Positions 439 to 37,202 are shown, numbered from the stretch's first letter. The stretch: 39,384 nucleotides of DNA from Bacteroidales bacterium (GCA_045642245.1 JAZUIL010000233.1:1-39384), one strand, 5' to 3'. Notes: generated from the sequence alone by a model not told the origin. Numbers and translations are program-made.

Positions 439-941
439 ATAGATTTAGTGAAATTATCGAAGAAATACAAAACATCATTCTTCGGGAAGAACCCATTCTG
501 AGGTTTCTTTCCGAGGATATCATTACCTCTCGCTTCAATCAACAGAACCGCAGCATCAAGATGCTCGTCGGCCATCTGATTGACTCGGCAAGCAACAATC
601 ATCAGCGCATGGTTCGTTTGCAATACGCTCCTCGCTGTGGTCACTCCATGCCAAATACAGAAATGGGTATGCTTGTCTTCCCTGATTATACACAGGATAA
701 CGACCTATGGATCGAACTGCAGGATTATCAGCATGAAGATTGGGACACGCTTCTATCTCTCTGGAAGTACTATAACCTCCATATCTGCCAAATTATGAAA
801 TCTGTCGATGAGATGAAACTCAATAACTATTGGATTGATTATGAAGGCTGTCGCGTGACGTTACAGGACATGATCGTTGGCTACACCAATCATTTGAATT
901 TGCATTTGAGCCAGATTCATGAACTGATGCAGAAATGTTAA
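435..941 (+). CDS. DinB/YfiT family protein
   Basis: ATG at 435 overlaps the upstream stop (ATGA). SIKMLVGHLIDSASNNHQR and YTNHLNLHLSQI give the DinB His pattern. Confidence 0.85.
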   Translation: MNRFSEIIEEIQNIILREEPILRFLSEDIITSRFNQQNRSIKMLVGHLIDSASNNHQRMVRLQYAPRCGHSMPNTEMGMLVFPDYTQDNDLWIELQDYQHEDWDTLLSLWKYYNLHICQIMKSVDEMKLNNYWIDYEGCRVTLQDMIVGYTNHLNLHLSQIHELMQKC

Positions 942-22029: not shown

Positions 22030-24870
22030 TTACCCTTTACGCTTAACCAATTCGTTCGGATTCTCTCCAAAGTATTCCTTATAACATTTAGTGAAATAAC
22101 TTGGAGCCGTAAAGCCTACTGCATAAGCTACCTGTGCAATAGTCTCATCTCCCTGAGCCAACATCTGCTGAGCTCGCTTCAGTCGGGTATTACGAATCAG
22201 CTCGACTGGTGAATAGTTGGTCAAAGCCTTGCACTTACGATAAAGCTGTGCACGGCTCATGCCAATCTCATCACCTAATTGCTCTACTCCGAAATCCGGA
22301 TCTGCCAGGTTCTGATCAATCATTTCTCGCATCTTGCGAAGGAACTTATCGTCTAACGATGATTCCTTGATAGGAATGTTATTCTGCTGCTTTGATACTT
22401 TGGCAGAAGGTTGAGAAACCGAACCTTCGCTAAAGAAATCGCGAACCCTATCATGACTCTTAACCAAGACATCGAGCTGAGCAATAAGGACATCGCTGCT
22501 GAATGGCTTTGGGATATAGGCATCGGCACCTTCTTGATGACCTTGCACACGCTGCTCGTCAAGATTGCAGGCGGTAAGCATCAGTACCGGAATATGACAG
22601 GTATTGACTTCTGATTTTAGACGGCGACAGGTCTCCATTCCATCGATACCTGGCATCATCACATCGCAGATAATGATGTCTGGAACGAGTCGCATAGCTT
22701 TGCGGATACCTTCCTGACCGTCTGCAGCTGTGAATACATGATAATTTGGGCTCAGCAATGTACGTAAATACTGACGGATATCTGCATTATCGTCAATAAC
22801 CAGTACTGCTGGTTTTGGATCATCTTCTGCAAGTTCCTGAGGTTCGATAACCTCTGCCAACTCACTTTCAACCTGTGCCGCAGTGATATTGACAGCACGA
22901 CGCTGTTCCTTCTCTGCCAGTGACTCAGTAAGTTCGCGGATAGGTAATATGACGGTAAAGATGGATCCGGTACCCACACTCTGATTCTTTACATCGATAG
23001 TACCACCGTGCAACTCCACAAAGTTCTTGACCAGTGCCAATCCGATGCCAGATCCTTCATGGTGAGCGGAATCTATCTGATAGAAATTCTCAAAGATCTT
23101 CTGAATATGCTCTACATTGATACCTGGTCCTGTATCTCCAATACGAAGGATTATAGATGAAGAATCCTTAAGTCCTAATTCAACCTCGATACGACCATTC
23201 TCAGGGGTAAACTTGAAAGCATTACCCATGATATTAAAGAAGATTCGCTCTAACTTCGGAAGATCTCCCATGGTATGGAACGCTGTATCTGAGCAGTTTT
23301 CCTGTATATTCAAGTCGAGCTTAATATGTTTCTTATAAGCCAGTCCTCTGAATGAATCATACCATCCCTGTACAGCTTCCCTGAAATCAATGGCTTGAAG
23401 ATTGAGCTCCAATTTGCCACTCTCATATTTGCGGAAATCAAGAATCTGATTGACAAGACGCAACAATACCTGCACATTCTTATGAGCCAGTCGCAAAAGC
23501 TGCTGACGGCTATCTCCAGCAGTCAGGCCATCGGCATCTGCCGCATTCATCAACTGTTCGATAGGGCCATTGATAAGGGTCAACGGAGTGCGGAAATCAT
23601 GTGAAACATTGGTAAAGAACATCAACTTTGCTTTTGTTGCTTCTTCAAGCTGCTCAGAAAGGGCTTTAAGCTGCTCATTCTGTGTCTCAAGTTGATCTCG
23701 CTGCTCTTTAAGCTTATCTCGTTGTTCCTTGAGGGTCTTCTGCTGACGGGCAAGGCTTTCATTGATCATCTTCTTGGCATAATACTGACGATATAGAATG
23801 ATGATAAAGAAGATGACAATACCCAAAAAGGTTAGCATAGAATAAAGCAAAGCCTGCTCAAGATTATGCTGCTGCCAGAAATAATCGACACGGCCTTTGA
23901 GCATCTGCACCGTATCAACCTCACGAAGGACCTCCTGATAAATGTTGTTTATCATCGGAGCATTGACCGGATCAATGAGGTAAGTATTCAGCTCTGTATT
24001 TCGTTCAAATGGTTCTCCGTTGAGAATCTTGAATGCCGTCTGGATAATCTGATCGCCTCCTGTGGCATAGACAGCAGATGCTTCCATCCAACCATTGAGG
24101 ATAGCCTCTACTCCATTGCCAGGACCGGTAAGACCATCAACGCCGATCAGTTGGATATCATTATTTGGCATTTTTCGCTCAAGAGCAATATGTGCACCGA
24201 TAGCCATCTGGTCATTCTGAGCCAGAATCATCTTTACATCAGGATGTAGCAGAAGGAGACTGTCGGTAATGTGTTCTCCTTGCTCTTTAAACCAATTACC
24301 TACAGCCTGCACAATCTCATATTTATCGACCTTGTCTCCTAATCCCTTAATGAAACCTTCATGACGTAATTCGGCAGGAGTTGAACCTGGCAGACCAAGC
24401 AACTCAAATACTTTTCCTCCTTCAGGAAGCATCATGGTAAGTGACTGAGCCATCAGTTGACCTACCGCCAGATTGTCACCACCGACGAAAGCCGTATACT
24501 TCTCTCCTTCTACCTTACGGTCTGCTACAATGACTGGAATACCGGCATCATAAGCTTTAGAAACTGCCGGTGTAAGAACAGCAGCCTCATTAGGAGACAC
24601 GATGAGCAAATCGACTTTTTCGTTGATGAAATAATCGATATCTGCTGCCTGCTGATCATTGTCGTCATGAGCCGACCTGACTTCGAGAGAGATTTCAGGA
24701 TGGAAAAGCAATTCTCGCTGCATCTCCTCATTCAGCTTAGTGCGCCAAGCATCATCGCTACATTGAGACACTCCAAGTCTAAACGTTTTCTCTGTACCCT
24801 GTCGGCCACATGCAGATATTAGTACTGAAAACGTAATAAAAAGAAAGAGCTGAAAGAATTGTCTTTTCAT
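22030..24870 (-). CDS. Hybrid two-component sensor-regulator with periplasmic sugar-binding domain (BT1754-like fructose sensor)
   Basis: RbsB-like domain (GVSQCSDDAWR), TM helix, SHDFRTPLT HisKA, GSGIGL, receiver CDVMMP, AraC HTH. Confidence 0.93.
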   Translation of the reverse strand: MKRQFFQLFLFITFSVLISACGRQGTEKTFRLGVSQCSDDAWRTKLNEEMQRELLFHPEISLEVRSAHDDNDQQAADIDYFINEKVDLLIVSPNEAAVLTPAVSKAYDAGIPVIVADRKVEGEKYTAFVGGDNLAVGQLMAQSLTMMLPEGGKVFELLGLPGSTPAELRHEGFIKGLGDKVDKYEIVQAVGNWFKEQGEHITDSLLLLHPDVKMILAQNDQMAIGAHIALERKMPNNDIQLIGVDGLTGPGNGVEAILNGWMEASAVYATGGDQIIQTAFKILNGEPFERNTELNTYLIDPVNAPMINNIYQEVLREVDTVQMLKGRVDYFWQQHNLEQALLYSMLTFLGIVIFFIIILYRQYYAKKMINESLARQQKTLKEQRDKLKEQRDQLETQNEQLKALSEQLEEATKAKLMFFTNVSHDFRTPLTLINGPIEQLMNAADADGLTAGDSRQQLLRLAHKNVQVLLRLVNQILDFRKYESGKLELNLQAIDFREAVQGWYDSFRGLAYKKHIKLDLNIQENCSDTAFHTMGDLPKLERIFFNIMGNAFKFTPENGRIEVELGLKDSSSIILRIGDTGPGINVEHIQKIFENFYQIDSAHHEGSGIGLALVKNFVELHGGTIDVKNQSVGTGSIFTVILPIRELTESLAEKEQRRAVNITAAQVESELAEVIEPQELAEDDPKPAVLVIDDNADIRQYLRTLLSPNYHVFTAADGQEGIRKAMRLVPDIIICDVMMPGIDGMETCRRLKSEVNTCHIPVLMLTACNLDEQRVQGHQEGADAYIPKPFSSDVLIAQLDVLVKSHDRVRDFFSEGSVSQPSAKVSKQQNNIPIKESSLDDKFLRKMREMIDQNLADPDFGVEQLGDEIGMSRAQLYRKCKALTNYSPVELIRNTRLKRAQQMLAQGDETIAQVAYAVGFTAPSYFTKCYKEYFGENPNELVKRKG

Positions 24871-25035
24871 GAACTGATATTTATAAAGATAAACAGTATT
24901 CGTGCGCAAAAATACTAATTTCAAAGGAAAAATGCAACCCTGAAGCATTGTTTTTTTATTATTATAACCCGTTTTAATCGAAAAATACTTCAGAACTTCC
25001 CATATTACTTATATTTTGCACGTATCCTTGGTCAT

Positions 25036-25070
25036 AAAAATAGCACCCATCCGTCACAGATGAGTGCTAT
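25036..25070 (-). terminator. Intrinsic terminator of the 36-aa sORF
   Basis: Minus strand ATAGCACTCATCT-GTGAC-GGATGGGTGCTAT-TTTT. Confidence 0.75.
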
Positions 25071-25095
25071 GCTATTAATAATTACTATTTGCTAA

Positions 25096-25206
25096 TCAGA
25101 TGAATGGGTTGACACCCGCTTCATAACATGGCTTATAGAGCGAATACATATTGTTGCAATAGCTCTTAAACGCCTTTTTTACATACTTTCTAACATGCTT
25201 TGTCAT
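25096..25206 (-). CDS. Small protein, 36 aa (MTKHVRKYVKKAFKSYCNNMYSLYKPCYEAGVNPFI)
   Basis: Read manually (below the ORF-track cutoff); own -7 element TACCTTTG at 25276-25283 and own terminator. Confidence 0.7.
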   Translation of the reverse strand: MTKHVRKYVKKAFKSYCNNMYSLYKPCYEAGVNPFI

Positions 25207-25493
25207 AACACGATTCTTTTAAAATAATACCTAAAATAAACACTATAAAGCAAATATCTTGTCTTTTCGACGCTGCAAAGGTAGGGCTGTTTTTCTTTGT
25301 TCAAACAAAAACTTCAAAAAAACTCACTTACAAAACCTTTTCAGGGTCTGTTTGACAGTTATACTAGGCAAATAGCCTCGATTTTTGGTCTTTTTTTGTG
25401 TAAAAATCGTTCAAATAATGGCCGGAATAACAGTTCTCAAATGGCAAAACTGTACTTACAAAGAGTAAACATTAAACAAATCGGAATACTTAT

Positions 25494-25524
25494 TTTGTTA
25501 AATCAAAGTTATCTCTTATATTTG
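25494..25524 (+). promoter_or_regulatory. Sigma-A promoter immediately before the ThiD-AraC start codon
   Basis: TTTG (25494-25497), 19 nt, TATATTTG (25517-25524), then CAGCA-ATG. Confidence 0.7.
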
Positions 25525-25529
25525 CAGCA

Positions 25530-26615
25530 ATGAATACTATACTTTGCATCAACGGATCAGACAGCTCTGGTTTTTCTGGTATACAGGCAGACATTCGTAC
25601 CATCAAAGATCTTGGTGGCCATGCTGTTACTGCTGTCACTTCTGTCACAGTACAAAATAATACGAACATCCGTGACATTCACGAACTGCCATCAGATCTA
25701 GTGGCAGGACAAATATGTGCCATCTACGAAGACGAGCACCCAAAAGCCGTCAAAGTGGGAATGATCAACAATGCGGAAACCATCCGTATTGTAAGAAATG
25801 AGATTGTGGGTTGCAAACAAATCGTATGTTCTCCAGAGGTTCTCTCTTCTCATGGCGGTTGCCTGATGTCCAATGATGCCATCAAGGCCTTCAGCACGTA
25901 TCTATTTCCTATCTGCTCATTATTAATATTAAAATGCACAGATGCAGAAATAATATTCGGTCGAAGGATTACCACAGATGAGGATATGAAAATCGCAGCA
26001 CAAGAACTTCAGCAAATGGGAGCAGAATGGATCTTGCTACGTGGAGGAACATATATGGAAGGACGAATCAACGCCTTGCTTTTCGGCAAAGATTATCTTA
26101 GATTCTTCTCCTCAGTAAATATTGAAGGATGGCAGAAACATGGTGTTGGTGGTACCCTCTCTACCGCTATCGCTTCACGATTGGCTTTTGGTGATGAAGT
26201 ACCAGAGGCCGTATCTCATGCCCACGACTACCTTCATAGCCAGGTCGTGTATGCTGATACTTCTGCTCAGAATGCAAAATCCTTACAGCCACAACACCTG
26301 TATAACACATTTCTTTCTCTTGTGGCTGATAATTATCAAACAGCCCATGATGTGATGTTCTATGCTGAAAAGTTATCTATTTCAACGAGATATCTTTCGC
26401 AGATTACAGGATCCGTTGGAGGTCTCTCTCCCAAACAGATCATAGATAATTATCTTTTGCAAGAGATTGAAAAACTTCTTTCAAACACCACTATGACTAT
26501 TCAGGAAGTGGCTAACGCCCTTGGCTTTTCTTCCCAGATTACTTTTGCTAAGTTCTATAAAACCAAGAAAGGCTTGTCCCCTAGTGCTTTCAGAAATAGT
26601 CTTCAATTCAAATAA
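25530..26615 (+). CDS. ThiD/HMP-kinase-like domain fused to AraC HTH
   Basis: N-terminal GSDSSGFSGIQADIRT, VTVQN, AVKVGM; C-terminal YAEKLSISTRYLS...IQEVANALGFSSQITFAKFYKTKKGLSPSAFR. Confidence 0.88.
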   Translation: MNTILCINGSDSSGFSGIQADIRTIKDLGGHAVTAVTSVTVQNNTNIRDIHELPSDLVAGQICAIYEDEHPKAVKVGMINNAETIRIVRNEIVGCKQIVCSPEVLSSHGGCLMSNDAIKAFSTYLFPICSLLILKCTDAEIIFGRRITTDEDMKIAAQELQQMGAEWILLRGGTYMEGRINALLFGKDYLRFFSSVNIEGWQKHGVGGTLSTAIASRLAFGDEVPEAVSHAHDYLHSQVVYADTSAQNAKSLQPQHLYNTFLSLVADNYQTAHDVMFYAEKLSISTRYLSQITGSVGGLSPKQIIDNYLLQEIEKLLSNTTMTIQEVANALGFSSQITFAKFYKTKKGLSPSAFRNSLQFK

Positions 26616-26626
26616 ACGGCAACTAA

Positions 26627-26663
26627 AAAAGAGCTGGCTTCCAATTGAGAAGCTAGCTCTTTT
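26627..26663. terminator. Bidirectional terminator between convergent genes
   Basis: AAAAGAGCTGGCTT / AAGCTAGCTCTTTT stem with A/T tracts on both sides. Confidence 0.8.
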
Positions 26664-26666
26664 CCT

Positions 26667-27602
26667 TTATTCTGGCTTGATACGGAACAGAACCGTATTC
26701 TGATAAGTGATGGATTTGTTTCTCGAGAAGAAAACCATACCATCGCAAGGTGACATGACTTCTGCAACTAACGAACCATCATAAGGATGCATTATCCTTG
26801 CTATAATTTGACCTTTCTGAATTGAGGTTCCAGCATCAACAACATCTACTAAGATACCTGCATGCGAAGCCTGGATTGTCGGACACTGATCTTCATCAAT
26901 AATCTGAGAATCACATCCATCTGAAACCATCATCCCTAAAAGGAATCCCTGTGCAGACATAAAACGCAAGACACCATCAATGGCTTGCTGTGCAGTTTGT
27001 GGGTCGATCGTTTCAGTTGTTCCTGCATACAGAGAGAAGGCTTGTGTATCCCAAATCTGCCAGTTGTAATTGAGCAGAACCGTATCAAATGGAGCAGGCT
27101 TACGAGTGGAGACATAAGGGAATCCGAACAGCTTTCCTAAAGAAATATCGGTGGCTCCTGTTCCAGTATCAATTACTCGGACATGCGGTACAAAATTTCC
27201 AGGCAGATAGTATGACGCTAATTGAATGCCATACTTATATTCCTGGATAAACTCAAACAATCCTGCGGCGATACGCTGAGTAGTTTCTCCGAGATCATAG
27301 CCTGGAAACATGCGGTTGATATCCGTATTATCGAGCGCCCAGAAACGTTTCTCAATATTCATAGAGAAAGGATTGACCGACGGGATGACGCTGATAGACA
27401 CACCATCGGCTATCTGTCCGTTGGCCTCCAGCTGTTTCAGCTCATTGACCAGACGAGACGCAATATACTGCTGTTGCATCTCATCTCCTCGCATCGCACC
27501 CACAATGGCCAGCGTCTTAGCTCCCTGGCCAAACGTATAGGCTTTGATGCGGAAATCGTCACGATAAGGTGACGACATGGTAAATATGGTTTGGATTTTC
27601 AT
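26667..27602 (-). CDS. M14/succinylglutamate desuccinylase-aspartoacylase family protein with degenerate metal site
   Basis: DINRMFPG and C-terminal barrel-sandwich-like domain retained, but MRGDE, IQLA and LYAG stand where the paralog has THGDE, IDIH and AEMG. Confidence 0.82.
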   Translation of the reverse strand: MKIQTIFTMSSPYRDDFRIKAYTFGQGAKTLAIVGAMRGDEMQQQYIASRLVNELKQLEANGQIADGVSISVIPSVNPFSMNIEKRFWALDNTDINRMFPGYDLGETTQRIAAGLFEFIQEYKYGIQLASYYLPGNFVPHVRVIDTGTGATDISLGKLFGFPYVSTRKPAPFDTVLLNYNWQIWDTQAFSLYAGTTETIDPQTAQQAIDGVLRFMSAQGFLLGMMVSDGCDSQIIDEDQCPTIQASHAGILVDVVDAGTSIQKGQIIARIMHPYDGSLVAEVMSPCDGMVFFSRNKSITYQNTVLFRIKPE

Positions 27603-27609
27603 AAAAATT

Positions 27610-27775
27610 GGACCCTCCCCCGACCCCTCCACAAGGGAGGGGAGTAAAATGTTTTTTCAAAGAGAGGTGTTTTTAATTTTATTTTTAACTAATGAGGAAA
27701 TCACTCCCCTCCCTTGTGGATTTCTGCCCCCGCTGTTCGGGGGATAGAGGGGGTGCGGCCGGTTGAGGGAGGGTC
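27610..27775. repeat. REP doublet; right arm interrupted by a 40-bp second hairpin unit
   Basis: Left arm 27610-27647; right arm split into 27703-27720 and 27761-27775 around a CCCCCG-N5-CGGGGG-containing insert. Confidence 0.85.
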
Positions 27776-28698
27776 TGCTTGTATATTCGGGCCAACAGGC
27801 TTCCTTCATAAATAATCGGATAGGCGCGTATCGTAAACAACAAACCATCACAAGGCGCTGTGACATCACAAAGGACATCTCCAGTAAGCGGAGAAATGAT
27901 CTGTCCGATGCTTTGCCCCTCTTTCACTTGCACATCATTATGAATACCCGTAACAAAGATACCCGAAGTCGTAGCATTGACAAAAGCCACTGCATCAGCA
28001 CCCTGGCAGATTATACTCTCTTTTATTTTTGCCTGATCGGGAGCTTCTTTCCAGATACCCATGTGGTGCATCAGATTCTGAATGCCATCGACCAGATGCT
28101 GGCACATCGGACGATTGATACGACCACCCACACCCATTTCTGCCACAAGACATGGTGTGCCAGTGCTATTTAACGAATGTGCAAGTGTAGACTCAAGAAC
28201 CGTAGCCGCCTGATGAATCCAGATGAAATCAATACCCATCAGCTTGGCCGATGGAACCAGCTTTTCTGCAGTCATCTCAGAAATTCGCACCTGAGGAATC
28301 TCGCGCAAGAAGATGTTTGAAGCATGAATGTCGATGACCATGTCTGCACCTGAAAGGTCTGTATAAATGTCATGTGCCACCTTCTCCACCATCGAACCGC
28401 GTGGATTCCCCGGAAAGATTCTGTTCATATCAAGGTCAAATGCAGGAACTCCTCGCTGCATAGAATCAATACCTAATGGGTTGAGTGCCGGATAAATATC
28501 TACCGTACCTGTCAGCTTGTGCAAATTCTCACGAACCATTTTGGCGATGAGGAAACAGACATACTGACCTTCCAACTCATCACCATGGGTGCCGGTGACG
28601 ATGCAGATACGAGGTCCATGTCCGTGTGTAAGATGATTCTTGACGATGCGGAATTCCTCATCGACAGGCATCTCAAAGGATGTAACATTCTGAATCAT
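27685..28698 (-). CDS. M14/succinylglutamate desuccinylase-aspartoacylase family Zn peptidase
   Basis: GTHGDE, DMNRIFPG, IDIHAS and VAEMG all present; last ~30 aa are encoded by the REP doublet. Confidence 0.88.
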   Translation of the reverse strand: MIQNVTSFEMPVDEEFRIVKNHLTHGHGPRICIVTGTHGDELEGQYVCFLIAKMVRENLHKLTGTVDIYPALNPLGIDSMQRGVPAFDLDMNRIFPGNPRGSMVEKVAHDIYTDLSGADMVIDIHASNIFLREIPQVRISEMTAEKLVPSAKLMGIDFIWIHQAATVLESTLAHSLNSTGTPCLVAEMGVGGRINRPMCQHLVDGIQNLMHHMGIWKEAPDQAKIKESIICQGADAVAFVNATTSGIFVTGIHNDVQVKEGQSIGQIISPLTGDVLCDVTAPCDGLLFTIRAYPIIYEGSLLARIYKQTLPQPAAPPLSPEQRGQKSTREGSDFLIS

Positions 28699-28743
28699 TG
28701 TTACTATGAAAAATGTTATTTGTTAATTGTTGATTATTGTCGT

Positions 28744-29511
28744 TTATTTCCAGAGCGAACAAGTCACCGTCTGCTGCTCATTGGTCCAAGAATAGAATCT
28801 TCCACGGTTGGTCGGACAGTCATCAGCATCTCTGCCATGAGCAATCTTTATATACCCCCATTCGGGCTCTGTATCGTGAGTTGGATCAAACGGAAGCCAT
28901 ACATTGCCGTTTGAAACCTCTACCCAGGCATGTGTCTGACCTTCGCCAGCAATAAATCCGTTGGCATAACGTGCATGAATACCTAAACTGCGACAGAAGG
29001 CGATCATCACATGTGCATAATCCTGACAGACGCCACGAGGATCTGCAAAGACTTCCTGTGCCGTTGTCGTCGTAGTGGTATGACAAGGTGTATAAATGAT
29101 ATTATTATGCACCAGATGCATTAGACACCGTGCCACTTCAAAAGGATTACTGAGACCTTGTGTCTTATTCTGTGCTACACGACGCATCTTATCATTCCAT
29201 TCTGTCAGACGTGTGGCTGAGAGATAATACGGAGCAGGTAATCCATGAATAGCATAGGGTTGCCGCTGCAGGATACGACCTTCAGACACGACCTTAAAAT
29301 AATCGTGTGGAGTGTCGAACGAACCCCATTGCACAGCATTACCCTGTCCATCATAGCTATGACAGAGCTGGCAAGGTGGAGAAACCTCCAGTCTTGCTTC
29401 CTCTGTCCGCTGGAATTCATTGTTGCACGGAATGGCACGCAACTTAAAGAAATGCCATACTACGGCTGGCGAGAACGTCGATTCTGTAATATATCTGTAT
29501 CTATAGATCAC
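28744..29511 (-). CDS. Bacterial transglutaminase-like protein (N-terminal Bact_transglu domain plus core)
   Basis: Triad GVCQDYAH / THAWVE / FDPT; KIAHGRD; GTG start. Confidence 0.92.
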   Translation of the reverse strand: MIYRYRYITESTFSPAVVWHFFKLRAIPCNNEFQRTEEARLEVSPPCQLCHSYDGQGNAVQWGSFDTPHDYFKVVSEGRILQRQPYAIHGLPAPYYLSATRLTEWNDKMRRVAQNKTQGLSNPFEVARCLMHLVHNNIIYTPCHTTTTTTAQEVFADPRGVCQDYAHVMIAFCRSLGIHARYANGFIAGEGQTHAWVEVSNGNVWLPFDPTHDTEPEWGYIKIAHGRDADDCPTNRGRFYSWTNEQQTVTCSLWK

Positions 29512-29520
29512 GGGGGAAAA

Positions 29521-30219
29521 TCAAATAAGCACCAGGCCATTCAGATAATTGAGCATCTTGCTTTTATACTCCGGATCGTATTTCTCATACGCGTCCTTGT
29601 CAACTACCATTGCTCGTAATTTGGCGATCATCACTTTATCTACAAGAGTCGGATCGTCGGCTATGAATTTCTCAAGTACACCCATGGCCTCTTCGATGCG
29701 ATAATGATGATAATCAAAACGGATGTTCATATCGAGATGCTCTATGAGCTTACCCAACATCAGGAAGGTACGGGCCTGACCATAGACACGCTCCTGAATC
29801 GAACCCCAGAATGACAACAAAGCATCCGTAATAGGCTGCAGATTGGTAATATTCGTGTCTTTCTGAATGGACTTGACGCGAATCAGGTCACGACATATTT
29901 CAATATAGGAGAATGACTCTGTCTTAATCTCTGTACGAAGTACGATGGCATTGTCCATCATAAATTCGATGATAGAACGAAGCGACGTCACGGTCTCTGG
30001 ATTATAGAGCTGATCCATAATCTGGTAAGAGGTGTCGAGCGAACCATCAGTATAGACATCGAGCTTCTTCAGGAAATCACTATAAATAGGTGTTTCGCCT
30101 ACGGGCACATCCAGTACTTCATCATAGGCTTTACGCATCAGATGCAGAAAGAGATAGCCGCGCTCGGCATATCGTCCCAACCAGAACAGGCGGTTGGCAG
30201 TGTTGGCAGATAAAATCAT
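29521..30219 (-). CDS. Alpha-E domain protein
   Basis: ANRLFWLGRYAER signature; helical; between the CP-ATP-grasp and transglutaminase genes. Confidence 0.9.
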   Translation of the reverse strand: MILSANTANRLFWLGRYAERGYLFLHLMRKAYDEVLDVPVGETPIYSDFLKKLDVYTDGSLDTSYQIMDQLYNPETVTSLRSIIEFMMDNAIVLRTEIKTESFSYIEICRDLIRVKSIQKDTNITNLQPITDALLSFWGSIQERVYGQARTFLMLGKLIEHLDMNIRFDYHHYRIEEAMGVLEKFIADDPTLVDKVMIAKLRAMVVDKDAYEKYDPEYKSKMLNYLNGLVLI

Positions 30220-30307
30220 ATAAAAAGGGGAGTAAAATGTACTCTATTCCGCGGAGAGGTGCGGTTTATTGTTAATTATATATGTAATAATCTCTATTTT
30301 TTACTAA

Positions 30308-31624
30308 TCACTCCATCACCCAAGTATCCTTAAATCCTCCACCTTGTGAAGAATTGACCACAAAGGAATTTGGATTACGTGAGAAACGGGTAAGACCAGA
30401 TTTCCAGACCTTAGTCTCTTTGCCTGTGATTACAAAGGCGCGAAGGTCGCACTTACGAGGAGATGGTTTTCCTGTCTCATCGATGATATCAAGGTCAATG
30501 AAATCTACGACTTCCTGTGCAATCCAGCGTCGTGGATCCTGGATGATCAGCTGCTTTACTTCCTCCAGTCGCTCCGGAGTCATATCACGACCAAACATCA
30601 CACCATAACCACCAGCTTCGGCCACGTCTTTGATGACGAGTTTTGACACATTATTAATAATATAGTCAAAATCCTCCTTGAAGAATGGCAGATAGGTTGG
30701 AGCATTCTGCAGGATAGGCTCTTCGTTGAGATAGTATTTCACCATCTTTGGTACGAAATAATAAATACCTTTATCGTCGGCAACACCATTACCCAAAGCG
30801 TTGATTACTCCTACGTTGCCAGCGCGATAAGCCTCCATCAGGTTTGGTACACCCAGTAAAGAAGTTGGTTCGAAGGCCAGCGGATCAAGATATTCATCGC
30901 TTACACGACGATAGATAGCACCTACACGTTCCTTCTGCTTATAAAGTCCTACATAATAGACAATGCCATTCTCTACTACCATATCGCCAGGGAAAGCCAA
31001 GGTGGCGCCTGTCTGTTCGGCTAGATAAGAATGTTCGAAGAAAGCTGAATTATAACGACCCGGAGTCAAGATGACGTTTATGCCACGGCCATCGTTGATA
31101 TAATCCATCATCTCACGGAGCATCTCGCCGTAATTACGATTGTCTGCCACCAGATTGTCTCGGAAAGTCTGAGGTGCAGCCTTACGGGTCACCTTTCGTG
31201 CAATCATCGGATAACTTGCGCCTGACGGGATACGCAAGTTGTCTTCCAGAATCAGCCAGCGGCCATCCTTGGCCTGCACAAGGTCGATACCTGAAATATG
31301 AGAATAGACATTGTGTGTAGGTGTGATTCCCTCACATTCTGGCATATAGCCTTTACTCTCATACGTAAATTCCTTAGGTACGACACCATCTGCCACAATC
31401 TTCTTCTCATGGTAAATGTCGTATAAAAACATATTCAATGCCTTTACTCGCTGTATCAATCCGCGCTCAAGCATCTCCCACTCTTCTGCAGGAATCTGAC
31501 GAGGAATGGCGTCAAAAGGAAATAACTGCTCATTGAATACACCATTCTTATATACGCCGAATCGTACACCATATCGCTCCATCCAACGGTTAACGGAATC
31601 ACGACTTTTCAAAAGTTCTTCCAT
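30308..31624 (-). CDS. Circularly permuted type 2 ATP-grasp ligase
   Basis: FPFDAIPR, GLIQRVKALNMFLYDIY, LEDNLRIPSGASY, NSAFFEH, GNGVADDK, GGYG, DLRAF, VVNSSQGGGFKDTWV. Confidence 0.94.
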   Translation of the reverse strand: MEELLKSRDSVNRWMERYGVRFGVYKNGVFNEQLFPFDAIPRQIPAEEWEMLERGLIQRVKALNMFLYDIYHEKKIVADGVVPKEFTYESKGYMPECEGITPTHNVYSHISGIDLVQAKDGRWLILEDNLRIPSGASYPMIARKVTRKAAPQTFRDNLVADNRNYGEMLREMMDYINDGRGINVILTPGRYNSAFFEHSYLAEQTGATLAFPGDMVVENGIVYYVGLYKQKERVGAIYRRVSDEYLDPLAFEPTSLLGVPNLMEAYRAGNVGVINALGNGVADDKGIYYFVPKMVKYYLNEEPILQNAPTYLPFFKEDFDYIINNVSKLVIKDVAEAGGYGVMFGRDMTPERLEEVKQLIIQDPRRWIAQEVVDFIDLDIIDETGKPSPRKCDLRAFVITGKETKVWKSGLTRFSRNPNSFVVNSSQGGGFKDTWVME

Positions 31625-31677
31625 AATAAGGATACCTTTATTTAATATAACTATATCTTTTTGTTGTTTTTCTGTTG

Positions 31678-31881
31678 CAAAGATAAATATTTTCTAGCGG
31701 AATGCAAATTTTTCAATCATTTTTCTATTACAATTTATAGTTTTAAAGTATTTTGAAAGCAAAATTGCCGATTTTTGTAATATAATGATTGCAAAAACAC
31801 ATGGTTTAGAGAAAAAAGAAAGCGTTTCGCTGTATTTTATAGCAATTCTCTTGCTTCATTTAGACGTTTGCTCTATCTTTG
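31678..31881. promoter_or_regulatory. Divergent sigma-A promoters for the ATP-grasp operon and the peptide-amtB unit
   Basis: Minus: TTTG (31705-31708)-19 nt-TATCTTTG (31678-31685). Plus: CTTG (31850-31853)-20 nt-TATCTTTG (31874-31881). Confidence 0.75.
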
Positions 31882-31955
31882 CACCAGAAAACAAACAATT
31901 ATTATCATTTTTCTATTCAAAACATAGAAAATAAAACAAAAAGAAAGGTATTGGT

Positions 31956-32033
31956 ATGGAAACTTTAGTAGTTAAAGAGCTTGCAGCTGGCGAAGAAATC
32001 TCTTTGCTTTACAACATCTGCATTATTTGGTAA
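31956..32033 (+). CDS. Small peptide, 25 aa (METLVVKELAAGEEISLLYNICIIW)
   Basis: Read manually; first ATG after the plus-strand promoter, A-rich leader with AAAGGTA, more GC-rich than its flanks, followed by a hairpin. Confidence 0.6.
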   Translation: METLVVKELAAGEEISLLYNICIIW

Positions 32034-32138
32034 TTTTTCGCATGAAGTCATTCTAAGCGGAGTGAAGAAAATCGCCCACTCTCGTTTAGGATGACATTAC
32101 AGACAAATAGACAACATATTAATTTAAAAAGAATCATT

Positions 32139-33533
32139 ATGAAAGAGAAAAGATGGGTGGTAATGTCCGCCATTTTAGTAATATTTGCCATTCTTGGCTG
32201 TACACATGTCTATTCTGATGGACTTTGGGAACTGGCTCCAGGTGAGGAACTTCAATGGGCCAACGTAGCATGGATGATCACCGCTACGATCTTCGTCCTG
32301 ATGATGACTCCTGGTCTTTCATTCTTCTACGGAGGTATGGTTGGCCACAAAAACGTTATTTCTACCATTCTCCAGTCGTTCATCGCCATGGGTCTGGTTT
32401 CTATTCTTTGGGTGACTGTAGGTTTTTCGTTCAGCTTTGGTGAAGATCTCTGGGGACTTCACATTCTGGGCGACCCTCGCACCTTCTTCATGTTCGAAAA
32501 TGTTGGTGCGCATGAGGCTTCGATGAGCTCATCTGTAGAGGGTATCCGTCAGCTGGCTGCTGGTGGCGTGGCAACGACCATCCCTATTGCATTGTTTGCT
32601 CTTTTCCAGATGAAGTTTGCCATCATCACACCTTCATTGATCACTGGTTCTTTTGCCGAACGTGTACGTTTCTCCGGCTACCTGGTCTTCATGACCTTGT
32701 TCTGCTTCTTTGTCTATTTCCCATTGGCTCACTGGACCTGGCATCCTTCAGGCTTCCTCAACCTCTGGGGCGTACATGACTTTGCAGGTGGTATCGTAGT
32801 TCACGCTTCTTCAGGTGTTGCTGCGCTGGCTGGTGCTTTGTTCTTAGGTAAGCGCAAAGGTGCTTCGCACGAAGATCCTGCCAATATTCCTTTCGTCATC
32901 CTCGGTGCCGCTTTGCTTTGGTTAGGATGGTTCGGCTTCAACGGCGGTTCTTCTCTGGCTGCTGATCACATTGCCGTACTTGCTTTCCTTAACACCAATA
33001 CATCTGCTGCTACAGCCATGTTGGCTTGGATCTTCATGGACTGTCTGCGTGGCCGCAAACCTTCAGCCATGGGTGCTGCAGTAGGTTCGGTAGTCGGCTT
33101 GGTAGCCATCACTCCTATGGCCGATCAGGTTACTCCTGGTGAAGCCATCATGATCGGTCTCGTCACTACGATGGTCTGCAACACAGCATGTTACTGGAAG
33201 AATCGCACAGGACGTTTTGACGATGCACTCGACGTCTTCCCTACCCACGGCATGGGTGGTATCTTCGCTACCTTGCTCACCGGTTTCTTTATGTGTATCC
33301 TTCACGAGGATAATCCTGACTGGGCAGGAATGGGTCTCCACATCCTCGGTCTTGCCATCGTCTGCATCTATACTTTTGTTGTCAGCTTAGGCCTTTACTG
33401 GTTGACCAACAAGATGATCCCTATGCGTGTTTCTGCTAAGTCTGAGGCTTTGGGTCTCGACCTTTCACAGCACGACGAACATTACGGCTTCGCTGATCAT
33501 GCTGAGGCAGAATTGGAAGAAGCTTCAAAATAA
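32139..33533 (+). CDS. amtB: Ammonium transporter
   Basis: MTPGLSFFYGG, FQMKFAIIT, DFAGGIVVH, LWLGWFGFNGGS, GLVAITP, DDALDVFPTHG, GLDLSQH. Confidence 0.96.
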   Translation: MKEKRWVVMSAILVIFAILGCTHVYSDGLWELAPGEELQWANVAWMITATIFVLMMTPGLSFFYGGMVGHKNVISTILQSFIAMGLVSILWVTVGFSFSFGEDLWGLHILGDPRTFFMFENVGAHEASMSSSVEGIRQLAAGGVATTIPIALFALFQMKFAIITPSLITGSFAERVRFSGYLVFMTLFCFFVYFPLAHWTWHPSGFLNLWGVHDFAGGIVVHASSGVAALAGALFLGKRKGASHEDPANIPFVILGAALLWLGWFGFNGGSSLAADHIAVLAFLNTNTSAATAMLAWIFMDCLRGRKPSAMGAAVGSVVGLVAITPMADQVTPGEAIMIGLVTTMVCNTACYWKNRTGRFDDALDVFPTHGMGGIFATLLTGFFMCILHEDNPDWAGMGLHILGLAIVCIYTFVVSLGLYWLTNKMIPMRVSAKSEALGLDLSQHDEHYGFADHAEAELEEASK

Positions 33534-33543
33534 AAATAACGAT

Positions 33544-33572
33544 TAGGATGAGGTTGAAATAGCCTCATCCTA
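33544..33572 (+). terminator. Hairpin after amtB
   Basis: TAGGATGAGGTT-GAAAT-AGCCTCATCCTA; no strong U-tract on the plus strand. Confidence 0.6.
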
Positions 33573-33662
33573 CAAAATAAGAATTTGCGTCTATTTGTTA
33601 ATTGTATAATGCCGGTTTGTCCGGCTCAATGATTCTTTTCTTGTGTTTTTTAAGGTATGTGT

Positions 33663-33701
33663 AAGTTTGAGACCGTCGTGAGACTGGTCTCAAATTTCTT
33701 T
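33663..33701 (+). terminator. GTGA-loop intrinsic terminator
   Basis: TTTGAGACC-GTC-GTGA-GAC-T-GGTCTCAAA followed by TTTCTTT. Confidence 0.7.
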
Positions 33702-33800
33702 ATATATTCATTGGTTCAAATAAATCGCGAAAATAGATTGTAGTTTTATTGGTTATATCAAAATATTAGAGTACATTTGCAGCCAAATAATAGAATAATA

Positions 33801-34712
33801 ATGAAACTTAAAGGATATATTTTTGCTGCATTGGCAGCTGCAGCATATGGCACAAACCCGATTTTTGCTAAGCCATTGTATGCAGATGGAATGAATCCCG
33901 ATTCGGTTTTGCTATTCCGCTATCTTTTAGCATTGATCCTGATGGGAATAATGATGTTATGGAATGTCCTGAAAAAGCAAAAAGAAGGAAAGACAATCTC
34001 CGAGATGTTTCATGTCGGAAGACATTCTTTACCACAGCTGATTATTATGGGACTTCTGATGTCTGCCTCTTCGATTCTGCTTTTCATGAGCTATAATTAT
34101 ATGCCTGTAGGAATCGCCTCTACCCTTTTATTTGTCTATCCGATCATGGTCGCAGTCATTATGACGCTCTGTTTCCATGAAAAGATGTCATGGTTAGTGG
34201 TAGTTTGTTTGGCTTTAGCCTCTGTCGGAGTAGCACTATTATGTAAAACCAATGGCGAGACAGAAACTCTATACAATACAGATTCATTCATGATCGGTTT
34301 TGCATTGGTTATGGCTTCTTCATTGTCTTATGCCATCTATTTAGTAGGCCTCAACAAGACACGAATCCGTACCATCGCCTCTATGCCTGTCACATTCTAT
34401 GTCCTGCTTTTTGGCCTCTCAATCTATCTTTTTCGTATTGCTTTCGGCGTCCCTCTGGTTTTACCTCACTCCTGGTCAATGTGGCTTAACTGTATGGCTT
34501 TAGGTATTTTCCCAACAGTCATCTCGCTGGTATTTACCTCTAAAGCCATTCAATGCATCGGAAGTACCCAAACGGCTCTATTCGGAGCTTTCGAACCTGT
34601 AACAGCTGTCGCACTTGGAGTCATTATCCTTGGCGAGAAGATTTCTTTCCAAGAAGCCATAGGCATGATCTTAATCTTCATTGCTGTCTCAATGGTCGTT
34701 AAGAGACGATAG
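33801..34712 (+). CDS. EamA/DMT family transporter
   Basis: About 10 TM segments; YGTNPIF, LLFRY, GIASTLLFVYP, FEPVTA; -7 TACATTTG at 33772-33779. Confidence 0.9.
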   Translation: MKLKGYIFAALAAAAYGTNPIFAKPLYADGMNPDSVLLFRYLLALILMGIMMLWNVLKKQKEGKTISEMFHVGRHSLPQLIIMGLLMSASSILLFMSYNYMPVGIASTLLFVYPIMVAVIMTLCFHEKMSWLVVVCLALASVGVALLCKTNGETETLYNTDSFMIGFALVMASSLSYAIYLVGLNKTRIRTIASMPVTFYVLLFGLSIYLFRIAFGVPLVLPHSWSMWLNCMALGIFPTVISLVFTSKAIQCIGSTQTALFGAFEPVTAVALGVIILGEKISFQEAIGMILIFIAVSMVVKRR

Positions 34713-34772
34713 TAAATATACTCCTCAATAATCACTAAATATCAACAAATAAAATACAAAACAATAATCGCT

Positions 34773-36158
34773 ATGAAACAACGCTCTTTACTTTTATCCG
34801 CTCTTCTGGCCACCGGATTTGCTACCACCGTCGCACAGAATCCGTCTATTTCGGCCATGTACACTCCTGATCCTGCGCCTTATGTTCATGATGGCAAGGT
34901 CTATCTCTTCGTCGATCATGACGAGGATGACGCCGTATATTTCAAGATGAAGGATTGGGTGCTTTTCGGTACCGAAGACATGGTCAACTGGACCTATCTC
35001 GGTGCGCAAGTCAACACAGCTACATTTGAATGGGCTGCACAAGGTGACCGTGCATGGGCCGCTCAGGGTGTGGAGCGCAATGGAAAGTGGTACTGGTATG
35101 TCTGCTGTAACACCGCTGATGGCAAGGATGCTTTGGCCGTGGCTGTAGCCGACAAACCTACCGGACCTTGGAAGGATGCTATCGGTGGTCCATTGGCCGT
35201 CGGATTCGGATTCATCGACCCTACTGTTCTTATTGACAATGACGGCACTCCATACCTTTTCTGGGGAAACAAAGGCTTCTGGTATGGAAAGCTCAATGAC
35301 GATATGATCTCTTTTGCCAATGGTTATAAGGAAGTTCCGGGTTATACCGACCCTAAAGCTTTCGGTGACCTGCAGTCAAAGATGGATTGGAGCATCGGCA
35401 AGGAACGTATGATGACCCAGTATGAGGAAGGTCCTTGGGTAACACGCCGTGGTGACCTCTATTACGCCGTTTATCCAGCAGGCGGTGTGCCAGAATATAT
35501 GGCTTATTCTACGGCTCCTACGGTCGATGGTCCTTGGACATTCCGTGGCAGAATCATGGATGAGGCCGAGAATTCTTTCACCATCCATGGCGGAAACATC
35601 AACTACAAAGGCCACGATTATATGTTCTACCACAACGGCATTCTGCCAAATGGTGGCGGCTTCCGTCGTAGCACTGCCATTGAGGAGTTTACGTTCAATG
35701 CCGATGGTTCTATCCCATTTATACCTTTCACCAAAGAAGGTGTAAAGCCTGTCGGAACGATCAATCCTTACGTCCGCGTAGAGGGTGAAACCATGTCTCA
35801 GAGCTGGGGTGTGAAGCTCGATCGCCTTGCCGGAGAAGAACATTACGTCACTTCAATCCACAATGGCGACTGGGTAAAACTGCGTGAAGTAGATTTTGCA
35901 GAAGGCCTCAGCAAGACCACCATGACCGCCGGTTTCTGTAATATCAAGAATGAAGGCGTAGTAGATTTCTTCCTGGATCAACTGGATGGAAAACCTTTTG
36001 CTACGATCAGCGTAAACAAGACTTCTACAGAAAATCCTAATGCACCTCAATTCTCATCAGAGTTGAAAGCAGAGCCTCAAGGCAAGCATGATGTCTATAT
36101 TCTTTTCCGCGGTGGTGACGAAGAACTTTTCGACTTTGACTGGTGGATGATAAAATAA
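34773..36158 (+). CDS. GH43 glycoside hydrolase with C-terminal CBM6-like module (xylosidase/arabinofuranosidase-type)
   Basis: Signal peptide; TPDPAP, AWA, IDPTV, YEEGPW; C-terminal SIHNGDWV...VDF...HDVYILF...FDFDWW. Confidence 0.88.
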   Translation: MKQRSLLLSALLATGFATTVAQNPSISAMYTPDPAPYVHDGKVYLFVDHDEDDAVYFKMKDWVLFGTEDMVNWTYLGAQVNTATFEWAAQGDRAWAAQGVERNGKWYWYVCCNTADGKDALAVAVADKPTGPWKDAIGGPLAVGFGFIDPTVLIDNDGTPYLFWGNKGFWYGKLNDDMISFANGYKEVPGYTDPKAFGDLQSKMDWSIGKERMMTQYEEGPWVTRRGDLYYAVYPAGGVPEYMAYSTAPTVDGPWTFRGRIMDEAENSFTIHGGNINYKGHDYMFYHNGILPNGGGFRRSTAIEEFTFNADGSIPFIPFTKEGVKPVGTINPYVRVEGETMSQSWGVKLDRLAGEEHYVTSIHNGDWVKLREVDFAEGLSKTTMTAGFCNIKNEGVVDFFLDQLDGKPFATISVNKTSTENPNAPQFSSELKAEPQGKHDVYILFRGGDEELFDFDWWMIK

Positions 36159-36181
36159 ATTCACACCCCATATTTGTTTTG

Positions 36182-36246
36182 TCACAAATCACAAATCACA
36201 TTTTCAAAAATAGTGTACTCTATTTTTCTTTTTGTGATTTGTGATT
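36182..36246. repeat. Inverted heptamer repeats (TCACAAA)n/(TTTGTGA)n around a GTAC-centred palindrome
   Basis: TCACAAATCACAAATCACA ... AAAAATAGTGTACTCTATTTTT ... TTTGTGATTTGTGA. Confidence 0.7.
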
Positions 36247-36303
36247 CTGGTTAATTAAGTGCTTTCCAGACACTCAAAAATACCTAAATTGCCTTATTTT
36301 TTT

Positions 36304-36491
36304 AACATCGCGTCCACGTTGTTAAAAAAAACAAGTCCAAATACCAACATCGTGTACCTGTTGTTGAAATTCTATATTGATAATACCAACATCACGTACA
36401 CGATGTTGAAATCCAATACTATCAAAATAAACATCGCGTACGCAATGTTAACCTCAATTATTTGAGTTTTCAACACTGCGTACGCGATGTA
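36304..36491. repeat. Five 20-bp palindromes (consensus AACATCGCGTACGCGATGTT) at an exact 42-bp period
   Basis: Units start at 36304, 36346, 36388, 36430 and 36472, with 22-bp AT-rich variable spacers. Confidence 0.92.
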
Positions 36492-36770
36492 AGTATTTTT
36501 GTTTGATTACTTCTCCCTCATAAAGTTATACTTGTCACACATGTTCTTGGTTTCCATATGCATAATTCTAGTTCCTTAATATTGAACAACAAACTAACAA
36601 CAAACCTTAGGTAGTCATTAACCAACAATAAGTCGTAACTTGTCGCCAGATTAAAGTTTGGCAATCATTTTACGAGGATTCGATATGCCAAATATACATT
36701 AGTGCAACTAAAGTGTTTAGATGAAGTGACGATCTCTCTACATTACATACTCACATTAACAGTAATTCGT

Positions 36771-37202
36771 TTATTCAAACACCAAGCAATCTCTGTCGTG
36801 TAGAAGAAACACTCCATCCCAGAATTCAGCAGCATCAATGCACATCTCATAGCAATCATACATTTTTTTCTTAGCTTCTTCGGGACTATCCCCTTCTAAT
36901 ATCGATTTTAGACCAGAAATAGCAGCTAATTTGAATAGTTCATCATTAGTACCTACTGTAAAATTGTCCTTATAGCCAACAAATAAACGCACTCCGATTC
37001 GTTTAAGTTCTGGCCCAAGAGTCTTTCCACACAAACAAGAAACACTGTAAAAGACTTTTCCTTCTAACGCATAATTTGCAGTGCGATTACTTAAGATCTC
37101 TTCTTCTGCCTCATTGAGAATTGCATCATCAGTACCATGTGCCGCAATGAAGCAAACGGTGTTGTCTTCCATCGCTTCAATGACATTTTTATGATTTAAG
37201 TA
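36771..37202 (-). pseudogene. 5'-truncated gene, caspase/hemoglobinase-fold (peptidase C25-like) domain
   Basis: Frame is open up to the IS left end (YLNHKNVIEAMEDN...); FIAAHG and YSVSC suggest a His-Cys dyad. Confidence 0.5.

Follow-up and report, generated by a model that had tools for sequence, protein, structure and literature searches.

Why does the gene of an ammonium channel stand head-to-head with an operon for an ATP-dependent ligase and two zinc-peptidase-like proteins? The question is raised by positions 26,667 to 33,533 of a contig from Bacteroidales bacterium GCA_045642245.1 (JAZUIL010000233.1), which we analyzed over its whole length of 39,384 nt, referred to here as the window; its source is a 2.6-Mb metagenome-assembled genome, 78% complete. 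The minus strand carries, between 26667 and 31624, five genes in the order CP-ATP-grasp ligase, Alpha-E, transglutaminase-like protein, M14a and M14b. Across a spacer of 515 nt, which holds a divergent control region and the 25-codon gene pep25, follows amtB2 on the plus strand; "AmtB2" is a name coined here for the clade of Amt channels linked to this operon. The first three genes of the operon form the triad that Valas and Bourne are said to have described in 2008 as the "Anbu operon" of Proteobacteria and Cyanobacteria, and the locus is a variant of this known but unexplained ATP-grasp/Alpha-E/transglutaminase system. New from the window are the AmtB2 clade with its loss of GlnK, four arrangements in which channel and operon are linked, and the 25-residue gene. 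Taken as a whole, the locus is best explained as a cassette that makes and breaks an amide bond and is wired to the ammonium supply, a reading to which we assign a probability of about one half.

The operon itself is a conserved unit. Relatives of the ligase were found in 595 cases among the GTDB species genomes (one genome per species), and the best 80 were taken with their flanks, 53 of them having at least 1.5 kb on both sides of the operon. In 73 of the 80 loci the set of five is complete, in one order and on one strand; the remaining seven (L006, L019, L025, L027, L039, L053, and L076) are cut off by a contig edge within 521 nt of the last gene seen. The pair of M14-type genes accompanies the ligase in every locus with room for it (73/73), and the five-gene arrangement is far from chance. 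In the window, the genes are separated by gaps of 88, 9, 45, and about 82 nt, and a bidirectional terminator-like hairpin (26627–26663; a 15-bp stem with an A-run before and a T-run after) closes the 3' end of the operon, separating M14b from a convergent ThiD–AraC gene. An earlier note, made from the sequence of this DNA, had proposed a five-gene minus-strand operon whose hydrolase slot is filled by two M14 peptidases, and had named the co-occurrence of the M14 genes with the ligase elsewhere as a point on which the idea would depend. Both the operon, with its domains at the places given (domain calls here are from Pfam, equivalog cut-offs from curated NCBIfam models and RNA families from Rfam), and this co-occurrence are borne out; both M14 proteins match AstE_AspA_cat, but as evidenced below only M14a can be catalytic.

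The ligase (30308–31624, minus strand) is the most conserved gene of the operon and matches CP_ATPgrasp_2 (PF14403) over its full length at 2.4e-135; its sole match in the PDB is the structural-genomics entry 3n6x (2e-113). The Alpha-E protein (29521–30219, minus strand) is a short form of 232 residues that matches PF04168 at 1.8e-15 over profile positions 2–198 of 294. This short form is the rule in the lineage, the median length across 75 orthologues being likewise 232 residues, and the motif W-x-G-R-Y-x-E-R is conserved, with W13, G15, R16, Y17, and R20 invariant in the 57 aligned rows. Its predicted structure is all-alpha, with a predicted local distance difference test score (pLDDT) of 92 and a predicted template-modeling score of 0.90. 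Neither a Foldseek comparison of the model with the PDB (E ≤ 0.001) nor a sequence search of the PDB returned a match. Fold relatives suggested by a wide VIA search were rejected: these were generic helical bundles only, below the level that goes beyond a common bundle, and the best of them (Z 11.3, root-mean-square deviation 3.2 over 122 residues) covered only residues 1–151. The transglutaminase-like cysteine enzyme (28744–29511, minus strand) combines Bact_transglu_N with Transglut_core, and its Cys-His-Asp triad (C162/H194/D209) is invariant in 76 of 76 orthologues. Judged from their sequences, ligase, Alpha-E and transglutaminase-like protein all look intact. In none of the five operon translations does the N-terminus show an evident signal peptide or membrane segment.

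The fourth and fifth genes form a live/dead pair. M14a (27685–28698, minus strand) is an AstE/AspA-type zinc deacylase (AstE_AspA_cat, 1.7e-22) in which the zinc ligands of the HxxE...H motif and the catalytic Glu (H38, E41, H125, and E187) are invariant in 73 of 73 orthologues. Along its length the protein can be aligned with solved members of the AstE/AspA family (3cdx, 2qj8) and with DoeB, and its closest named relatives are AstE-like proteins and DoeB. Its substrate is not one of the known ones, since its scores fall well short of all the equivalog cut-offs (70.9 bits where DoeB requires 402.7, and 17.6 where aspartoacylase requires 180). M14b (26667–27602, minus strand; AstE_AspA_cat, 1.8e-10; 40.3 bits against the 402.7 of DoeB) shares about 23% identity with M14a. 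Its longest open reading frame (ORF) reaches a GTG at 27632, and the most likely start is the ATG at 27602, which is the invariant M1 of a 33-row alignment. An hhalign comparison of the two families (probability 99.9) pairs H38 with R48, H125 with A139, and E187 with Y202: M14b thus has Arg for the first zinc His (73/73), Ala for the second (71/73) and Tyr for the catalytic Glu (73/73), and keeps E51 and the substrate-carboxylate motif NRMFPG. This combination of a replaced zinc His pair and catalytic Glu with retained E51 and NRMFPG marks M14b as a conserved pseudo-enzyme and not a peptidase; as two zinc ligands and the catalytic Glu are missing from M14b throughout the 73 orthologues, only one of the two hydrolases is live. 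Complex prediction lends weak support to a predicted association of M14a with M14b: the pair scored 0.60, against 0.00 for the highest of three controls, with a partner pLDDT of 92 and with 75% or more of the contacts common to the runs. Of 157 solved complexes, 116 reach the mark used, as do 2 of 215 mismatched pairs; it should be noted that scores of 0.60 or lower were seen for only 18 of the 157 solved complexes, plus both of the mismatches that passed. The pass may also be due to likeness to solved homo-oligomers of the AstE/AspA family.

The connection with nitrogen comes from the other side of the spacer. AmtB2 (32139–33533, plus strand) scores 373.5 bits (1.2e-111) with TIGR00836, above the cut-off of 343.3, and its pore motifs DFAGGIVVH and THGMGG, in which we take the Asp and the twin His to be the functional residues, align with those of solved AmtB/Amt-1. 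The gene starts at the ATG at 32139 and not at 32091, because, in an alignment of the window with eight congeneric loci, the stretch from 32091 is out of frame in L003 and L086 and the start at 32139 aligns, being conserved in nine of nine loci. Counted over 466 flanking ORFs of the fetched operon loci, amtB is the most frequent neighbor family. It turned up at 8 of the 80 loci; of the 53 whose flanks reach 1.5 kb or more to either side, 7 have it. Four layouts were observed: the gene diverges from the operon (the window, L003, L046), directly precedes it in the same orientation (L026, L028, L052), follows it in the same orientation (L002, L022), or sits within it, between the genes for Alpha-E and the transglutaminase-like protein (L024). 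The tight same-strand spacings in L026 and L093 are 66–99 nt. Among 301 genomes drawn evenly from the order, the 11 ligase carriers were too few for a statistic of the distance to amtB, and a sample of 36 congeners and the 80 loci were used instead. Eight congener channels are 92–98% identical to that of the window and one is 65% identical; all nine adjoin the ligase on the same contig, no congener has AmtB2 without the ligase, and 9 of the 13 operon-carrying congeners have the linked channel. The linkage of operon and amtB that the earlier note had seen once is therefore a recurrent one.

When 38 Amt proteins were placed in a maximum-likelihood tree, all 18 that are linked to the operon, plus one that is not, grouped in a single clade (support 100/99). 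This clade is separate from the ordinary AmtB of Bacteroidales, to which its members are 30–45% identical. It also differs in its surroundings: 14 of the 17 other amtB loci have an adjoining P-II gene, compared with none of 21 loci of the AmtB2 clade or its sister. No P-II gene was found within the locus of the window; its own assembly gave only a weak P-II-like match, on another contig, and in this incomplete assembly the linked channel is the only amtB found. Four congeners (G316, G305, G320, and G307) have a separate glnK–amtB pair elsewhere. A channel clade that dropped GlnK and kept its place beside the cassette suggests that what the system trades in is ammonium or amide nitrogen.

Operon and channel gene face each other across a control region with a predicted promoter on each strand, both assigned by what we take to be the Bacteroidetes -7 consensus, TAnnTTTG; a scan for sigma-70-type promoters is not informative for Bacteroidetes. 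The box TATCTTTG at 31874–31881 (plus strand) would serve the pep25–amtB2 transcript and is kept upstream of amtB2 in most congeners, and the same box at 31678–31685 (minus strand), some 55 nt ahead of the ligase gene, would serve the operon, with the block GCAAAGATA at this promoter conserved in congeners. Midway between the two lies a conserved imperfect palindrome, TTTTGTAAT-N6-ATTGCAAAA (31773–31796), which looks like a candidate local operator. A divergent promoter region shared by the operon, the 25-residue ORF and amtB, as the earlier note had put it, agrees with these predicted promoters, with the start of amtB corrected to 32139. Because this region is common to both sides, operon and AmtB2 are probably switched on together under scarcity of fixed nitrogen.

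Genes other than amtB were surveyed among the immediate neighbors of the cassette, by annotation of 76 of 137 adjacent ORFs; these were hand-picked, omitting amtB, already annotated families, near-duplicates, and most short ORFs. Seven of the 76 use the amide nitrogen of glutamine: asnB (L010, 42 nt upstream on the same strand, and also L037), carB (L020 and a family of four loci), purL (L047), an NAD synthase gene (L057), and two class-I amidotransferase-like genes (L008, L023).

A nitrogen connection of the triad is already in print for Proteobacteria (PMC5491218, PMC5666114, PMC6376114, PMC3325844). In Burkholderia cenocepacia, the homologous DUF404/407-DUF403-transglutaminase cluster depends on NtrC and sigma-54 (PMC5491218). 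Nitrogen limitation raises the expression of Anbu-operon genes in Pseudomonas putida (PMC5666114, PMC6376114), where PP2685–2687, including a transglutaminase-like gene, rise 6.6- to 11.1-fold under this condition (PMC3325844). In marine metagenomes the triad covaries with domains of urea metabolism (PMC3597751), and release of phosphate from ATP is described for the ATP-grasp protein of an operon in Yersinia (PMC6376114). According to these papers, the triad has been known since 2008–2009 and is widespread without a confirmed physiological role (PMC6376114); Iyer et al. (2009) are cited on it in PMC5666114 and PMC6376114. Our literature searches, which did not reach the text of Iyer et al. 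(2009), found no description of a variant with the AstE/AspA live/dead pair, and no paper since 2019 that joins Anbu, operon and ATP-grasp. The link to nitrogen is thus supported by the comparative genomics of AmtB2 linkage, and this agrees with the published induction of the triad under nitrogen limitation in Proteobacteria.

Could the channel nevertheless be a bystander? On this explanation the operon would not be nitrogen-specific: amtB2 would have become its neighbor once by chance, and the pair would then have spread by descent and horizontal transfer. The tree agrees with this in that all linked AmtB fall in one clade, and so does the rarity of amtB at the operon loci, whose flanks are otherwise highly variable. 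The operon itself is patchy, as expected of a mobile accessory block, with the ligase in 11 of the 301 order genomes and in 13 of the 36 congeners. A chance juxtaposition sits less well with a linkage that has outlived at least four local arrangements, including an insertion inside the operon and the tight spacings given above, and with a clade that has lost its usual glnK neighbor. The enrichment of other neighbors for glutamine-amide enzymes also speaks against it, as do the published nitrogen-limitation data on the homologous triad in Proteobacteria, which are independent of our loci. We therefore regard a bystander channel as unlikely, and retain the amide-bond cassette tied to ammonium.

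Several points weigh against this preferred reading. The channel is missing from the fetched flanks of 72 of the 80 operon loci, and 4 of the 13 operon-carrying congeners showed no AmtB2, indicating that it is an optional partner. One member of the clade (L094) is unlinked and comes from a genome that is 99% complete and has no ligase, and with all linked AmtB in one clade operon and channel gene may have come together just once, in an ancestor. Scored with a weight matrix made from eight palindrome copies, the window's own site reached 32.8 and the next best in its own assembly 21.8; several of the next-best matches there lie inside ORFs. With no second strong operator copy in the assembly, no regulon shared with other nitrogen genes is shown. 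The trend toward glutamine-amide enzymes is suggestive, coming as it does from hand-picked neighbors with no formal background model. No substrate or product of any member of the triad was found in the literature searches. Finally, a tenth of the words sampled from 26600–33600 recurred in one public RNA-library run, and 50 contigs from it, of 90–99% likeness, span 24 of 30 bins with parts of the operon, the intergenic region and amtB, one of them crossing the ligase start and 260 nt of the spacer; these contigs are those of relatives, perhaps include DNA and cannot show transcription, strand, ends or level, and they were not used as evidence of expression.

How the parts may work together can be outlined as follows. 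The cassette would be self-contained and cytoplasmic, with one amide bond both made and broken. As in the earlier note, which had inferred a write/erase system for Glu/Asp-type amide or isopeptide bonds, this bond would be formed and hydrolyzed on a Glu/Asp-type carboxylate. The CP-ATP-grasp ligase, with the short Alpha-E protein, would activate the carboxylate with ATP and couple it to ammonia or an amine; the transglutaminase-like protein, by its Cys-His-Asp triad, would then transfer or hydrolyze that acyl or amide group; M14a would cleave an N-acyl-Glu/Asp-type linkage and so recycle the pieces; and M14b may act as a non-catalytic binding or regulatory partner by way of its kept carboxylate-binding motif. 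The nitrogen handled would be that which enters as ammonium or is held as amide. This outline builds on observed gene content, catalytic residues, operon conservation, and recurrent linkage to the AmtB2 clade and to glutamine-amide enzymes. Co-regulation of operon and channel, the direction of flux, and the nature of the substrate are what we infer.

A more detailed proposal, which we consider improbable, makes the system a second route of ammonium capture, independent of GlnK and glutamine synthetase. Ammonia delivered by AmtB2 would be the nucleophile with which the ATP-grasp ligase amidates a Glu/Asp-type carboxylate of a small acceptor; the transglutaminase-like protein would pass on or release the amide nitrogen, the M14 pair would regenerate the acceptor, and the pep25 product would replace GlnK as a micro-regulator of the channel.

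The same parts could instead serve a nitrogen-storage peptide or polymer resembling cyanophycin, extended by the ATP-grasp ligase and dismantled by the transglutaminase-like protein and M14a when nitrogen is short. An architecture of one ligase plus hydrolases and the link to ammonium uptake would suit such a role, as would the family of M14a (nearest named relatives, AstE-like proteins and DoeB), which cleaves N-acyl-Glu/Asp-type bonds. Yet a primer, a carrier and a second ligase domain are all missing from the operon, our literature searches found no polymer reported for any carrier of the system, and the published induction of the triad under nitrogen limitation fits scavenging better than storage; we consider storage, which the earlier note had listed among its options, quite unlikely. 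The fold families found in the cassette also include enzymes that act on peptides of the D-Glu/meso-diaminopimelate type, and the cassette might accordingly recycle or edit such peptides from the cell wall or elsewhere, its nitrogen connection being only indirect. This appears very improbable given the cytoplasmic look of the five N-termini, the lack of murein-recycling genes among the annotated neighbors, and the kinship of M14a with AstE-like proteins and DoeB, to which it is closest among named proteins.

Besides the channel, the plus-strand side of the control region offers pep25 (31956–32033, plus strand; METLVVKELAAGEEISLLYNICIIW), the small peptide that the earlier note had placed head-to-head with the ligase module. 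Homologues were found in nine loci, all in or next to the genus of the window; they are of equal length and share the start Met and a final Trp followed by the stop. Seven sequences compared in pairs gave proportions of synonymous differences (pS) of 0.26–0.92, near saturation, and ratios of nonsynonymous to synonymous proportions (pN/pS) of 0.03–0.53, mostly below 0.3, so that by its pattern of substitutions pep25 is a real gene under purifying selection. The gene lies upstream of amtB2 in four loci (the window, L003, L085, and L086) and downstream of it in another four (L087, L089, L091, and L092); the flanks of the two position groups do not align with each other, and in the alignment a typical terminator hairpin with a T-run follows pep25 in L091. 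Thus, pep25 is predicted to be co-transcribed with amtB2 in either order. A further copy, 92% identical, is found at 522–596 (minus strand) of G333:C74 (L121), 52 nt after a 6-phosphofructokinase-like (pfkA-like) gene; this 2-kb locus has no amtB, and the operon of G333 is on a different contig, so pep25 can persist away from the channel. Two congeners, G314 and G303, have AmtB2 and lack pep25. No homologue was found in the other 78 operon loci, outside the genus group, at E ≤ 50, and in metagenome contigs of the Joint Genome Institute (JGI) a long search pattern gave no match and a short one seven, all by chance and in unrelated frames.

These results bear on a further explanation, protein or peptide tagging, an option also offered in the earlier note, in which the product of pep25 would be the substrate or the tag of the ligase, in the manner of a ribosomally synthesized and post-translationally modified peptide (RiPP) or of Pup. 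Tagging is among the functions hypothesized for the triad (PMC6376114), and pep25 is real, conserved, rich in Glu (E2, E8, E13, and E14) and only 330 nt from the ligase start. Its confinement to one genus group and its attachment to amtB2, before or after it, rather than to the ligase nevertheless make it a poor candidate for the ligase substrate, and with the stray copy in G333, the two AmtB2 congeners that lack it and no true match in the JGI contigs, tagging by way of pep25 seems highly improbable. The varying position argues for a genus-specific small protein gene, which is neither a position-dependent leader nor a conserved ligase substrate. We conclude that pep25 is a genus-specific accessory of AmtB2 and does not belong to the core of the cassette: the peptide of the earlier note is a genuine gene, but its link to the ligase is not conserved. 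Two possible origins of pep25 were rejected, the N-terminus of AmtB2 (with which it shares ELAxGEE; 158 of 2,000 shuffles) and the N-terminal hairpin of M14a (832 of 2,000), neither alignment rising above the shuffles.

Between pep25 and amtB2 a strong RNA hairpin is predicted at 32047–32095 (plus strand), with a minimum free energy of -27.4 kcal/mol for 32031–32145 and a z of -5.3. In the alignment of the window with L085 and L086, three of its stem pairs are changed on both sides. The hairpin has no U-tract and is present only where pep25 lies upstream. An Rfam scan of 24000–37000 (E ≤ 1) found nothing near this leader, its best matches all being far below their gathering scores.

Compared with known systems, the locus stands closest to the Anbu operon, with which it has in common the first three genes and their order, a ligase and a Cys-His-Asp protein that are intact, and, for the window, a probable association with nitrogen limitation. 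It differs in the lack of Anbu: none of the five operon products matches a proteasome family, and PF00227 was not found in the 78%-complete assembly. The fourth slot is instead taken by the live/dead AstE/AspA-type pair, the Alpha-E protein is about 80 residues shorter, and in the lineage of the window a dedicated AmtB paralogue is attached. With the AstE/AspA/DoeB deacylases (succinylglutamate desuccinylase, aspartoacylase and N-acetyl-diaminobutyrate deacetylase; PDB 3cdx, 2qj8, and 6twm), M14a shares its fold, the HxxE...H motif, the catalytic Glu and NRxFPG, whereas it falls below every equivalog cut-off and its partner M14b has lost the metal site. Like the channel of a glnK–amtB pair, AmtB2 is a full-length Amt channel with conserved pore motifs; unlike it, AmtB2 belongs to a separate clade, has no adjoining P-II gene, adjoins the ligase operon instead and in one genus is predicted to be co-transcribed with the 25-residue gene. 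In glutathionylspermidine synthetase/amidase, an ATP-dependent amide ligase is paired with a papain-like Cys-His amidase that reverses the bond. The analogy rests on the name under which 3n6x was deposited, "putative glutathionylspermidine synthase"; in the window the two activities are on separate proteins, the ligase is circularly permuted, and Alpha-E and M14-type parts are added. From ATP-grasp RiPP systems the locus differs in that no precursor-peptide gene is conserved beside the ligase, pep25 being absent from 78 operon loci.

For a triad that has long been unexplained, the channel linkage, the live/dead pair and the 25-residue gene offer three experimental handles. The combination of an active hydrolase with a conserved dead copy narrows the chemistry, and the product would be expected to accumulate on loss of M14a. 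The cassette occurs in cultured Bacteroidales of gut and rumen, namely Prevotella sp. P6B1 (L052, with amtB2 just before the ligase), Prevotella sp. P5-92 (L047) and a strain of Parabacteroides distasonis (L035), and is therefore directly testable there; the outcome bears on how gut anaerobes handle ammonium.

The distribution of the ligase showed some further features. Seven of the 11 order genomes carry it at 67–100% identity to that of the window, and four carry a different type at 43–46%; the Bacteroides thetaiotaomicron genome used as a control gave no match to PF14403. In two genomes (G167:C139 and G199:C15) a second, distant ATP-grasp (29% identity) lies in a frame of about 860 residues a few kilobases from the 43–45% copy, and these frames are probably fused ATP-grasp–Alpha-E proteins of another type of system. 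The whole cassette was also observed on nine contigs (L019, L043, L060, L061, L073, L074, L079, L080, and L081) labeled as Oscillospiraceae, Succinivibrio, Enterobacterales, Pseudomonadota, Lachnospiraceae, Treponema, Anaerotignum, and Ruminococcus, with ligases 67–74% identical to that of the window; such contigs with Firmicutes, Spirochaetes, and Proteobacteria labels reflect either horizontal transfer or mis-binning.

The genes that flank the module in the window seem to be of other kinds. Downstream of amtB2 lie an EamA-family transporter gene (33777–34712, plus strand) and a gene for a GH43 glycosidase with CBM6 (34773–36158, plus strand); as neither was found 3' of amtB2 in the congener loci, both are probably outside the module. 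Convergent with the operon, an ORF at 25530–26615 (plus strand) fuses Phos_pyr_kin (7e-57; phosphomethylpyrimidine/pyridoxal kinase) to an AraC-type helix-turn-helix domain (HTH_18, 1.9e-19). This ThiD–AraC fusion, which was not seen beside the operon at other loci, may be a vitamin-sensing regulator. Beyond it, at 22030–24948 (minus strand), lies a hybrid two-component system whose sugar-binding domain is periplasmic and whose output is of the AraC type; it is typical of the regulation of polysaccharide utilization and looks unrelated to the operon.

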